This document shows, piece after piece, positions 39,611 through 42,740 of a stretch of 64,000 nt of DNA. The notes beneath the pieces are model-generated. The model saw nothing but the letters and a program-made list of their open reading frames with translations, made no database searches and was not told the DNA's origin. This DNA is from Alphaproteobacteria bacterium (GTDB taxonomy: Bacteria > Pseudomonadota > Alphaproteobacteria > MPNO01). Made by a program: the position numbers and the translations under genes. Location of the stretch: positions 288,001 through 352,000 of the forward strand of contig OZ219866.1 in assembly GCA_964291675.2 (NCBI GenBank), read 5' to 3'. The number at the start of each line of letters is the position of its first letter. The first letter of the stretch is position 1.

Positions 39611-40036
39611 TCAGCCCTTCGTCCGCCCGATCGTGAGCCGCACCGGATCGCCGTCCTCGACGCCCAGCGCCTCGCGCAGGCCGATCTCGGCGACGATCTC
39701 GATCTGCGCCGGCGGGTAGCTCTCGACCTCGGGGTAGACGATCGCCGCCTCGATCCTGCCCTCGACCAGCACCCTGTAGCAGCGCGCGTCGCAGTCATGC
39801 GGCCCGTTGCCGGGGTTCTCCATGCGGATCCCGGGCGTCTGCCGCAGCCGCACCCAGACCGGCACCGCGTCCGGGTCGTCGACCACGACGTTGAGGGTGC
39901 CGGGAAAGGGATCGATGCCGAGCCGTTCGACGAACTGCGCGCGCGCCCAGGGGAGCTGCGTGAAGTGCCGGCCCTGGCCGATGCCGCTGGCCAGCCGCCC
40001 CAGGATTTCCTCGCCCGTTCCGGATCGCCCCATCAT
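39611..40036 (-). CDS. CTP-dependent (archaeal-type) riboflavin kinase domain protein
   Basis: GRLASGIGQG.HF, LGIDPFPGTLNV, IEIVA..LREALGVEDGD. Confidence 0.8.
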   Translation of the reverse strand: MMGRSGTGEEILGRLASGIGQGRHFTQLPWARAQFVERLGIDPFPGTLNVVVDDPDAVPVWVRLRQTPGIRMENPGNGPHDCDARCYRVLVEGRIEAAIVYPEVESYPPAQIEIVAEIGLREALGVEDGDPVRLTIGRTKG

Positions 40037-40420
40037 CGCGGCGGTAATGACAGCCGACCGTCCCGGGGTCCAGCGAAATCGCCCGCGTCCTTCGATACGC
40101 CTCCAAGTCGTCATGCCTGGCTGCCGGAACGAATCCGGCGGTGTTCCGCTGCCGTCCGGTCTGGATTTTCGGCGCGGGCTCCACGGCATGAACGAGACCG
40201 TCTCCGTTCCCCCTCTTATCGGCCCTGTACCCTCGTCATGCCCCCCCAATCGTCATGCCCGGACTTGATCCGGGCACCCATGCAGCCTCTCGGCGCGCAC
40301 GGCGGCCGGGCGGGAAAGGTGTTGGCGGCAGTGGGTGCCCGATGGAGTGGACGCCCCCTCCGACGGCATCTGTGTGCCAAAGTGGCGGTGTCATCAACCC
40401 ACTTGGAGGAGGGAGCATCC

Positions 40421-41452
40421 ATGGCCGAGGTTAGCATGATCGGGATCGATCTTTCGAAGCGGAGTTTTCAGCTGCACGGGATGTGCGCGGACGGCTCGGT
40501 GGGTTTCCGCCGGACGCTGAGCCGCGGCAGGCTGCTCGCCTTTCTGGCGCGTCAGCCGCGCTGCGTGGTGGCGATGGAGGCGTGCGGGGGCGCGCATCAC
40601 TGGGGTCGCGAGATCCTCGATCTGGGCCATGAGGTGCGGCTGGTGCCGCCGGTCTATGTGAAGCCCTTCGTGAAGCGCCAGAAGAACGATGCGGCGGATG
40701 CGGCGGCGATCTGCGAGGCGGCGTCGCGGCCGACCATGAGCCTGGTTGCGGTGAAGACGGCCGAGCAGCAGAGCCGCGGCATGCTGTTCCGGGTGCGCGA
40801 TCTCCTGGTGCGCCAGCGCACCCAGGCGCTCGACGCGCTGCGCGGCCATCTGGCGGAGTTCGGGCTGGTGGCGCCGAAGGGTCCGGCGAGTGTCGGCAAG
40901 CTCGCGGTGGCGCTGGAGGCTGCGCGGGCCGGTCTGCCGGACCGGGTGGGCGAGCTCGCCGGGGTGCTGCTGGAGCAGATCGCCGGGCTGGACGAACAGG
41001 TCGCCGAGCTCGACAAGGAGCTGCGCGCCGAGGCGCGGCGGGATGCGGATGCGCGCCGGCTGATGACCATACCGGGGGTCGGGCCGGTCACCGCGATGGC
41101 GATCCAGGCCTTCGCGCCGCCGCTCGACGGGTTCCGCCGCGGGCGCGACTTCTCGGCCTGGCTCGGGCTGGTGCCGCGCCAGCACACGACGGCCGGCAAG
41201 CCGCGGCTGGGCAGGATATCGAAGATGGGCCAGCGCGATCTCAGGCGGCTCCTGGTGCTCGGCGCCATGTCGGTGGTCCGCAGCGCCGGGCGCCACGACA
41301 CGGTGCGCGACCCGTGGCTGGCCGGGATGCTGGCCACCAGGAAGCCGAAGAAGCTGATCGCCGTGGCGCTGGCCAACCGCACCGCGCGCATCGCCTGGGC
41401 GATGACCACGAGACAGCAGAGCTACCGGGCGCCCGCGCCGAACACCGCCTGA
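40421..41452 (+). CDS. IS110 family recombinase/transposase
   Basis: DEDD RuvC-like motifs IGIDLSK, MEACG, KNDAADA; C-terminal IPGVGP, WLGLVP, RISKMG. Confidence 0.95.
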   Translation: MAEVSMIGIDLSKRSFQLHGMCADGSVGFRRTLSRGRLLAFLARQPRCVVAMEACGGAHHWGREILDLGHEVRLVPPVYVKPFVKRQKNDAADAAAICEAASRPTMSLVAVKTAEQQSRGMLFRVRDLLVRQRTQALDALRGHLAEFGLVAPKGPASVGKLAVALEAARAGLPDRVGELAGVLLEQIAGLDEQVAELDKELRAEARRDADARRLMTIPGVGPVTAMAIQAFAPPLDGFRRGRDFSAWLGLVPRQHTTAGKPRLGRISKMGQRDLRRLLVLGAMSVVRSAGRHDTVRDPWLAGMLATRKPKKLIAVALANRTARIAWAMTTRQQSYRAPAPNTA

Positions 41453-41700
41453 GCGCGGCGGATGCGGGCCGCCGTCGGCAGTGCGGGCGAGGTCTGAGGA
41501 CGGGTAAGGACAAACGGTCGATGAGACGGGATCGGGAAAACCAGTTTGATCCGGCGCGCCGAAGAGCACGCGTGCCCGATTTGGACCCGATCCGCGTATG
41601 CCATACAGGCCCGCGGCGCCGCATAGGCCGCAAGCAGAGGCCGCATAGACGACAGCACCTGACCGCACTGTCCGAACCGTTCGAAAAAAACCTTGCACCG
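41453..41700 (+). ncRNA. Putative bridge/seek RNA of the IS1111-type element
   Basis: Stem GGATCGGG/CCCGATCC enclosing TTGATCCG (41546-41553) and GTGCCCG (41572-41578), matching the target; CATAGACGA (41644-41652) matches the circle junction; RNA ends unknown. Confidence 0.8.
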
Positions 41701-41786
41701 CCGGGGGCGTCCATAGACGGATCAAGTCCGGGCATGACGATCGGGGGCCATGACGGGTTGCGGGAAGGGCGCGGCCGGAGGGGCCG

Positions 41787-42740
41787 CTACGCGGGATCAG
41801 GGGCGGGCGACCGGTGCGTTTGCCGCGCGGCTTCGCCGCGCACCCAGTCGCGGAACGCCCTGACCCCGGGCCGCTCCAGCGCGCCGGGCGCGGTGCAGAG
41901 CACGTAGGAGGCGGGCGCGGGAACGCCGCTGCCGAAGAGCGGAACCAGAGCCCCCCGTTCGAGCTCGTCGGCGATCATCCTGGCATGGCCGAGGGCGACC
42001 CCCATGCCCTCGACCGCCGCCCGCACGGTCATGCTGTGCGACTGGAAGCCGGAGGCGAGGGAGAGGTCGGCCGGGGCCGCGCCGTGATGCGCGAACCAGT
42101 ACGCCCAGTGGGGCGCCCAGCCGAGGTCGTAGAGCAGCGGCCAGCGGTGCAGGTCGTGCGGCTCCGCGGGGCGGGCGTGCCGGCGCAGCAGCGCCGGACT
42201 GCATACCGGAACCAGCGTCTCCTCGAACAGCGTCTCGCAATCGGGGGCCGCGTCGACCCGGTCGGTGAAGGCGATCCACGCATCGAAGTCCCGCTGCGCC
42301 GGGGCGAAGGCGCCGCGGTCGGTCTCCACCTCGACGGCCAGATGGGGGTGGGCGGCCTTGAAGCCGGGCAGCCGCGGCGTCAGCCATTTCTCCGCCACCA
42401 CCTCGACCGCGACGAGCTTGAGCCGTGGCTCCCGGCCGCCGTTGCGCAGCCGGGCGTTGGCCTGGCGCAGACCGGTCAGCAGGCGCCGAACGTCCTCCAG
42501 ATAGGCCTCGCCCTCGGCGGTCAGCCGAACGCCCTGGCTGTGACGGGTGAACAGCGCTACGTCGAGACACCGCTCCAGGCACTTGACGCGATAGGCGATG
42601 GCGGCCGCGGTGATGCCGAACTCCGAGCCGGCCGCGACGAAGCTCCCGAGGCGCGCCGCCGCTTCGAAGAAGGGCAGCGTATCCAGCACGCGCGAATCGG
42701 GCGGTTGCGTCTTCGGCGGGATCTGCGAGGGGCCGTGCAA
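41787..42740 (-). CDS. LysR family regulator (GcvA-like)
   Basis: FEAAARLGSF HTH, LFTR..VRLTAEG, substrate-binding domain; start uncertain. Confidence 0.9.
   Translation of the reverse strand: MHGPSQIPPKTQPPDSRVLDTLPFFEAAARLGSFVAAGSEFGITAAAIAYRVKCLERCLDVALFTRHSQGVRLTAEGEAYLEDVRRLLTGLRQANARLRNGGREPRLKLVAVEVVAEKWLTPRLPGFKAAHPHLAVEVETDRGAFAPAQRDFDAWIAFTDRVDAAPDCETLFEETLVPVCSPALLRRHARPAEPHDLHRWPLLYDLGWAPHWAYWFAHHGAAPADLSLASGFQSHSMTVRAAVEGMGVALGHARMIADELERGALVPLFGSGVPAPASYVLCTAPGALERPGVRAFRDWVRGEAARQTHRSPAPDPA

Follow-up and report, generated by a model that had tools for sequence, protein, structure and literature searches.

The mobile elements closest to the one considered here belong to a class whose mechanism is already established. 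In the parts of their report that bear on this comparison, Siddiquee et al. 2024 describe IS1111 elements, i.e., insertion sequences (ISs) in which subterminal inverted repeats are combined with a non-coding region downstream and a seekRNA of 82-96 nt (PMC11187229); the segment of this RNA that matches the top strand of the target lies 5' of the one that matches the bottom strand, natural as well as engineered retargeting is documented, and the transposases carry a GL-P----S/T-G motif, of which a T-A variant is mentioned (PMC11187229). Durrant et al. 2024, in the portions relevant here, report that the left and right guides for target and donor include the core, and that 93% of IS1111 elements have a predicted bridge RNA in the right end (PMC11208160); for ISPpu9, the corresponding sections of a further paper describe recombinase-dependent modular rearrangements around its small-RNA gene (PMC12288879). 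Here we analyse a window of 64,000 nucleotides from an Alphaproteobacteria bacterium (GenBank assembly GCA_964291675.2, contig OZ219866.1, positions 288,001 to 352,000 of the forward strand; coordinates below count from the first letter of the window), in which an IS on the plus strand interrupts a repetitive extragenic palindromic (REP) element. Judged from its sequence, this is an intact IS1111-group IS encoding a bridge/seek RNA, and an ordinary new member of the class described in 2024; very probably, its recombinase is guided by a non-coding RNA from the 3' region of the same strand. The understanding of the class is unchanged by it. What it offers is a clean natural case of an RNA-guided recombinase of the IS1111 type, with a specificity that can be read from the sequence, 5'-GTGCC-CG-GATCAA(G)-3' in a REP with dozens of empty copies. 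Its relatives bear 28 different left-target guides on a shared conserved scaffold; they amount to a natural reprogramming series, and they also display covariation of donor guide and core for the IS1111 group.

The element spans 40342-41717 (1376 bp excluding the core dinucleotide) with CG on both sides, and its assignment to the IS1111 group follows from a long 3' non-coding region, subterminal inverted repeats and an identical core dinucleotide at both junctions. The 3' non-coding region measures 265 nt (41453-41717) as against 79 nt at the 5' end (40342-40420), and the subterminal inverted repeats are 11 bp long, where the group has 7-17 bp, with short terminal extensions. The same CG stands at both junctions (left, GTGCC-CG/ATGGAG, 40335-40347; right, CATAGA/CG-GATCAA, 41712-41725) and once in empty sites, as in insertion without target duplication. 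These limits agree with the four copies found in the genome, which are 98-100% identical: In every one, the alignment with flanks begins at ATGGAG and ends at CATAGA, with CG on each side.

The first-pass annotation of this DNA, made from its letters, had called the protein an IS110/IS1111-type recombinase, and profile searches agree. An N-terminal DEDD domain (Pfam PF01548, DEDD_Tnp_IS110, residues 7-146, E 1.4e-12) is followed by a C-terminal Transposase_20 domain (PF02371, residues 212-289, E 2.6e-22), and the score against NCBIfam NF033542 ('IS110 family RNA-guided transposase') is 319.4 bits for a cutoff of 140. The motif of the C-terminal domain is present as GLVPRQHTTAG, the T-A variant of GL-P----S/T-G; aligned to the ISCro4 transposase, its second T falls opposite the serine of the S-G pair, that is, at the S/T-G motif position. 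Relatives of solved structure are limited to the transposases of ISCro4 (E 8.6e-13) and IS621 (E 1e-10), with similarity mainly in the C-terminal domain, and the nearest plasmid-borne relatives, 59-67% identical, are annotated merely as 'IS110 family transposase'.

That removal of the IS restores GTGCC-CG-GATCAA, as was also claimed at first pass, is borne out by the genome itself. The joined flanks read GGGTGCC-CG-GATCAAGTCCGGGCATGACG (in a shorter form, GGGTGCC-CG-GATCAAGTCC), a REP-like element, and an uninterrupted element at 40251-40280 matches the reverse complement of the rebuilt site GGGTGCC-CG-GATCAAGTCCGGGCATGACGA in every base. The 13-mer GTGCCCGGATCAA occurs uninterrupted 67 times in the genome, each an empty exact site, with 156 further sites differing by one substitution, and the REP core CGGATCAAGTCCGG occurs 265 times. 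All four copies of the IS occupy the identical REP position in the identical orientation. Three have the left flank GTGCC-CG and one has ATGCC-CG, which would form a G-T wobble with the guide; two share part of the right flank, so that the copies represent at least three independent contexts. The IS lies within an inverted REP pair about 55 bp apart, and the four copies resemble one another over some 100 bp on their left side. Each of the REP variants GTGGCC, ATGCCC and GCCCCC ahead of CGGATCAA occurs roughly as often as the exact target.

The first-pass annotation had further placed, in the 3' region, an RNA whose guides match the target and the donor junction. When the sequence was read from 39800 to 42000, the stem, the guide and CCAT segments and both junctions were all where it had put them, including TTGATCCG (41546-41553, within the right-target guide) and the 9-nt segment CATAGACGA (41644-41652). 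Core-anchored matches of this kind were sought in 5000 dinucleotide shuffles of 41453-41700. A left-flank match of at least 7 nt (observed, 7) arose in 239 shuffles, a right-flank match of at least 8 nt (observed, 8) in 16 and a right-end match of at least 8 nt (observed, 8) in 22, and the three arose jointly in 0 of 5000. The left-end match, the 4-nt CCAT, arose in 3847 and is by itself no better than chance.

Homologs with other targets do not retain these segments: The guide slots shift with the flanks and right ends of each element. A protein search of 20 same-family genomes (G000 included) found the transposase in 8 at E up to 1e-60. One of these, G016, has 16 full-length copies at 72% identity, of which 15 were aligned; the left flank is AACAAGTC-CG in 15/15 and the right flank CG-GGCATG in 14/15. 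Its 3' region retains the stems of the window letter for letter. Where the window has GTGCCCG, G016 carries AAGTCCG, its own flank; at the position of CATAGACG it carries ACACACG, its own right end; and at the position of TTTGATCCG it carries TCATGTGCG, which pairs with its own right flank save for one mismatch and one wobble. A further family, multi-copy in related genomes, has 42-44% protein identity.

To extend the comparison, one genome per species was scanned, yielding 536 relatives, of which the best 80 (58-75% amino acid identity) were used. A search for boundaries by the longest inverted repeat was noisy; with fixed anchors within the subterminal repeats, boundaries were set for 61 of 82 elements, leaving out 19 without a boundary pair and 2 with weak repeats; the 61 reduced to 49 distinct elements and, after removal of three (L076 and L093, whose right ends were misassigned, and L118, which is without a left flank), to 44 non-redundant ones. 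G009 (67% identity) was excluded, its scaffold being present, its right end aberrant and its left repeat unrecognisable. In each of three slots, the match of an element to its own DNA exceeded its match to that of the others. Over the 5 non-core positions of the left-target guide, the own mean was 4.66 against a cross mean of 1.37, with 32/44 perfect; over 7 positions of the right-target guide in free register, 5.30 against 3.52, with 6/44 perfect; and over the 5 non-core positions of the left-donor guide, 4.98 against 3.82, with 43/44 perfect and 7 distinct types. For each slot, 0/5000 permutations did as well, figures that overstate the significance, as the sequences are related. The many distinct guide types, with 28 different 5-mers among the left-target guides of the 44 elements, speak against a purely phylogenetic effect. 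The early claim of a downstream RNA with readable guides is thus supported for three guides.

The core varies together with the guides. In 27 elements, both junctions and the two identity guides (left-target, left-donor) all have CG, and in 13 they all have TG; a further 4 elements combine a CG core on the left with CA on the right. A mutual-information scan that set each RNA column against each position of the flanks and ends, with columns not preselected (L111, whose right flank is too short, was left out), arrived at the same partners. Left-flank positions -7 to -3 track 41572-41576 (identity 0.89-1.00), the first core base tracks 41577 and 41650 (identity 1.00), and right-end positions -4 and -2 track 41646 and 41648 (identity 1.00). 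Right-flank positions +3 to +6 track 41551 down to 41548 as complements, at values (0.57-0.68) lowered by register shifts in the alignment.

A different account of such matches is that they are relics in the DNA, i.e., fragments of target and ends copied by past rearrangements, which guide nothing while the protein alone picks the site. Sequence can indeed be shuffled at these segments, as the tandem arrays in the relatives L034 and L110 (see below) make plain. Relics, however, would not hold fixed positions in a conserved fold, nor follow 28 different left flanks across phyla; the helices show compensatory and G-U changes typical of RNA, and in published experiments guide swaps retarget ISEc11 (as covered in PMC11187229). 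We therefore consider this account very unlikely.

The fold itself was derived from an alignment (A1) of 38 sequences, comprising window positions 41491-41668 and 37 relatives hand-picked from the 61 with boundaries so as to avoid near-duplicates. The consensus has 28 pairs in 6 helices (Table 1) and leaves the guides unpaired, with the target guides flanking P2 within the P1 arm and the donor-side segments flanking P3/P4; 98.6% of 1061 cells form a standard pair. Twelve of the 28 pairs are changed on both sides, 0/500 shuffles reach any of five measures, and slid controls are 21-45% paired. The stems are thus conserved with compensatory changes while the guides vary with the flanks and right ends, so that the refuting outcome named at first pass, homologs with other targets that keep the same segments, did not arise. 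G-U pairs are frequent in the helices (e.g., 10/38 at two P1 pairs), and since these would be mismatches on the opposite strand, the fold is that of an RNA of the plus strand. The same observation bears on the idea that the segments work not as RNA but as guides of single-stranded DNA, like the subterminal hairpins of IS200/IS605. Short segments matching the flanks of a cleavage site are compatible with either nucleic acid, but frequent G-U pairs argue against DNA, as do the protein, a DEDD/IS110-family recombinase and not an HUH enzyme, and the co-purification of family members with RNA (reported in the relevant part of PMC11187229); we give this idea next to no credence.

Table 1. Positions of the IS, its REP target and the parts of its RNA gene within the window.
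Feature	Position	Strand	Remarks
Uninterrupted inverted REP copy	40247-40280	-	Its reverse complement is the target rebuilt by removal of the IS
Left half of interrupted REP (AGTGGGTGCC) and left core CG (40340-40341)	40330-40341	+	Sequence, alignment of copies
Left subterminal inverted repeat TGGACGCCCCC	40348-40358	+	Preceded by 6-nt terminal extension ATGGAG, 40342-40347
Transposase/recombinase gene, 343 amino acids	40421-41452	+	DEDD RuvC-like domain and Transposase_20 domain
Conserved structured core of bridge/seek RNA gene	41491-41668	+	Alignment A1 and consensus structure; limits of the core, not RNA ends
Helix P0, 5' strand GGTCG	41516-41520	+	Pairs with TGACC, 41660-41664, closing the whole RNA; 2/5 pairs compensatory
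Helix P1, 5' strand GGATCGGG	41529-41536	+	Pairs with CCCGATCC, 41586-41593; 5/8 pairs compensatory
Helix P1b, CC	41541-41542	+	Pairs with GG, 41583-41584
Right-target guide TTTGATCCG	41545-41553	+	Complementary to top strand CG-GATCAA(G), right flank
Inner hairpin P2, between the two target guides	41556-41569	+	41556-41559 with 41566-41569; four consensus pairs
Left-target guide GTGCCCG	41572-41578	+	Identical to left flank plus core, so pairs with bottom strand
Candidate right-donor guide TGCCATAC	41598-41606	+	CCAT, 41601-41604, complements left-end ATGG
Hairpin P3/P4, between the two donor-side segments	41608-41642	+	P3, GGCC/GGCC, 41608-41611 with 41639-41642; P4, GCGGC/GCCGC, 41613-41617 with 41627-41631
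Left-donor guide CATAGACG	41644-41651	+	Identical to last bases of right end plus core
Right subterminal inverted repeat GGGGGCGTCCA	41703-41713	+	Followed by 4-nt extension TAGA, 41714-41717
Right core CG (41718-41719) and right half of interrupted REP (GATCAAGTCCGGGCATGACGAT)	41718-41741	+	Sequence, alignment of copies, REP census

On this basis, the element would work as follows. A DEDD/serine-type recombinase would be guided by a non-coding RNA encoded on the same strand as its gene, closed by P0 and bearing two arms. The first arm (P1/P1b) would present an internal loop around P2, in which the right-target guide lies 5' of the hairpin and the left-target guide 3' of it, and these two guides would read both strands of 5'-GTGCC-CG-GATCAA(G)-3' in the REP element. 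In the second arm, single-stranded segments would surround P3/P4, the 3' segment serving as the left-donor guide and reading the right end (CATAGA-CG) of the junction of the excised circle; strand exchange at the CG core would then insert the element without duplication. From the published biochemistry of the family we infer production of the RNA and its binding by the recombinase, formation of the circle and the choice of target by the guides.

Compared by published descriptions, and within what the cited parts of those papers cover, the element resembles ISEc11, ISPa11, ISKpn4 and ISPst6 (PMC11187229) in its long downstream non-coding region, its subterminal repeats and a transposase in the range of 330-350 amino acids. 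As in IS1111 seekRNAs (PMC11187229), its two short target matches overlap at the insertion point and the segment complementary to the top strand is the 5' one; and as in those four elements (PMC11187229), close relatives are naturally re-directed by replacement of guide segments and the motif is of the GL-P----S/T-G type, here in its T-A variant. Unlike in those four elements, the target is the REP of a high-G+C bacterium and the core is CG. The donor-side guide covaries clearly with the right end in the subfamily of the window, which is not described in the parts of PMC11187229 consulted for comparison. Similarities to the covariance-model predictions for ISAzs32, ISCARN28 and ISPa11 (in the relevant part of PMC11208160) lie in an RNA placed in the right end with target and donor loops.

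The element shares with IS621 (PMC11208160, in the portions that treat it; 8wt6 and related) guides that read both strands of target and donor, a REP target, left guides that carry top-strand sequence and a two-domain recombinase of DEDD plus Tnp. It differs from IS621, as described there, in that its RNA lies in the right end and not the left, left and right guides follow each other in the opposite order in each loop, the subterminal repeats are 11 bp as against 2-3 bp, and the core is CG or TG as against CT; similarity to the IS621 protein is distant (E 1e-10, C-terminal domain only). Like ISPpu9 and ISPpu10 of Pseudomonas putida, in the sections of PMC12288879 devoted to them, it uses one fixed REP position, often in inverted REP pairs, and modular rearrangements are seen next to the small-RNA gene, which in that paper are recombinase-dependent. 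Unlike it, ISPpu9 is placed there in the IS110 group (without subterminal repeats and with the bridge RNA usually upstream) and has the core AG (PMC12288879).

Several observations, besides the relatedness of the sequences noted above, weigh against an RNA-guided element of the form just outlined. One is the fourth guide: Over its 2 variable positions, the right-donor candidate gave an own mean of 1.30 against a cross mean of 1.22, with 16/44 perfect and 540/5000 permutations doing as well, and the column scan for a right-donor partner found no RNA column that tracks left-end positions 5-6. CCAT is invariant in 38/38 sequences of A1 and its partner ATGG is nearly so; the segment in the window is one base short of the family consensus (GCCAT vs CTCCAT) and fails to match position 5 of the left end. 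In the window copy, P2 has C-A in place of one of its four consensus pairs. The early claim that the guides lie in loops stands in the 38-sequence consensus structure and fails in the minimum-energy fold of the single sequence, which keeps P1 and pairs the two target guides with each other, owing to the fact that the REP target is itself an imperfect palindrome; the placement of the guides in loops therefore rests on the family consensus structure, lone folds being uninformative on this point. The energy of the single-sequence fold is unremarkable (z = -1.26 and -1.14). A search of Rfam left the region unmatched, and a simple scan of 40200-41800 returned 0 sigma-70-like promoters and 0 intrinsic terminators. 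In two of the four genomic copies, 18 bp that include the 3' strand of P1 are missing, so that these copies are probably unable to produce a functional RNA in cis.

Contigs from RNA libraries cover part of 41457-41604, but they may derive from DNA, and most pieces are relatives at 90-95%. Two sponge-metatranscriptome runs have small shares of related sequence (0.10 and 0.09). An 88-nt contig of X2 matches 41457-41544 with zero differences, and a 97-nt metatranscriptome contig covers 41515-41604 with 5 differences. One contig end parts from the window sequence precisely at 41544, at the start of the variable right-target guide, which fits a relative carrying another guide. The near relatives (L061-L140, 58-75%) come from metagenome-assembled genomes (MAGs) labelled Alphaproteobacteria, Vicinamibacterales, Longimicrobiales, Binatia, Nitrospinota and others; taken with the sponge RNA runs, the distribution suggests spread across phyla within one habitat. 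The sole Rfam match at E up to 10, ASdes, lies on the minus strand inside the transposase gene, and at 21.2 bits against a gathering score of 40 it was taken as chance.

Some of these points could also mean that the RNA gene is real in the family and that the copies in this genome are recent fossils, no longer active. All copies have the 1-nt loss in the candidate right-donor segment and the C-A mismatch in P2; the 18-bp deletion that takes the 3' strand of P1 (window 41577-41594) affects two of the four (C2:1391795 and C2:2996734); and only 4 sites are occupied, as against 67 exact sites that are empty. However, the 343-codon frame is open in all four copies, their identity of 98-100% points to recent spread, and the two full-length copies, one with three differences in the 3' region, retain every helix and all three tested guides. 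Moreover, the right-donor segment is variable in clearly multi-copy relatives too. We hold loss of activity to be improbable, and an intact element with an RNA-guided recombinase remains our preferred reading.

Rearrangements at the guide-coding DNA form a separate set of observations. In L034 (776-1345; same genus, G014), a perfect 142-bp unit is repeated 4.0 times in tandem, beginning immediately past the left-target-guide core (ATTTGGACC...) and reaching the right end of the IS, and the array ends in true REP flank GGCATGACG. It looks like the product of unequal recombination between the right end and guide-coding DNA that resembles the target's left half. The donor-loop/right-end module was amplified a second time, independently, in L110 (2363-3396; an Alphaproteobacteria MAG), where a perfect 131-bp unit, from a CG just 3' of P1 (CG-TATCTCCATAC) to the right end, is present in at least 7.9 tandem copies and runs off the locus. 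The junctions of both arrays are at a CG inside the RNA gene. In the genome of the window itself, the 18-bp deletion breaks on its left at the left-target-guide core and has a microhomology of exactly CG; the two copies that carry it are those with part of the right flank in common. Lastly, L062 (1100-1125, 2490-2700) is inserted in the bridge-RNA gene of another family member, of the TG-core type; its site, GTAAGGGCAAA-CG-GTCAATCGAGAC, is the conserved 5' scaffold of the family RNA, and its guides GCAAACG and TTTTGACCG match that site.

Guide-coding DNA is itself a copy of the half-site read by the guide, and a tentative and rather doubtful explanation is that the recombinase may recombine the right end with such internal pseudo-sites. 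Reading of pseudo-sites would explain the tandem arrays, the 18-bp CG-to-CG deletion and the insertion of L062 in a sibling RNA gene. With two arrays and one deletion at hand, the evidence suggests, as a lead rather than a result, that guide-coding DNA can act as a pseudo-site. If so, self-targeting and conflict between elements would be a regular cost, or a regulator, of bridge-RNA systems. Efforts to select or engineer IS1111-type bridge recombinases could start from these relatives, which are also a pointer to self-directed rearrangement of RNA genes.

Two minor features complete the description. The motif (G)CTTGCA(C/T) at 41693-41699, about 20 nt before the right end, is kept in most relatives across phyla and may supply the -35 half of a promoter that arises at the circle junction. 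Elsewhere in the same genome, a 327-bp stretch (C2:1586610-1586936, L005) is 67% identical to part of the transposase gene and is probably another IS110-family element or a fragment of one.

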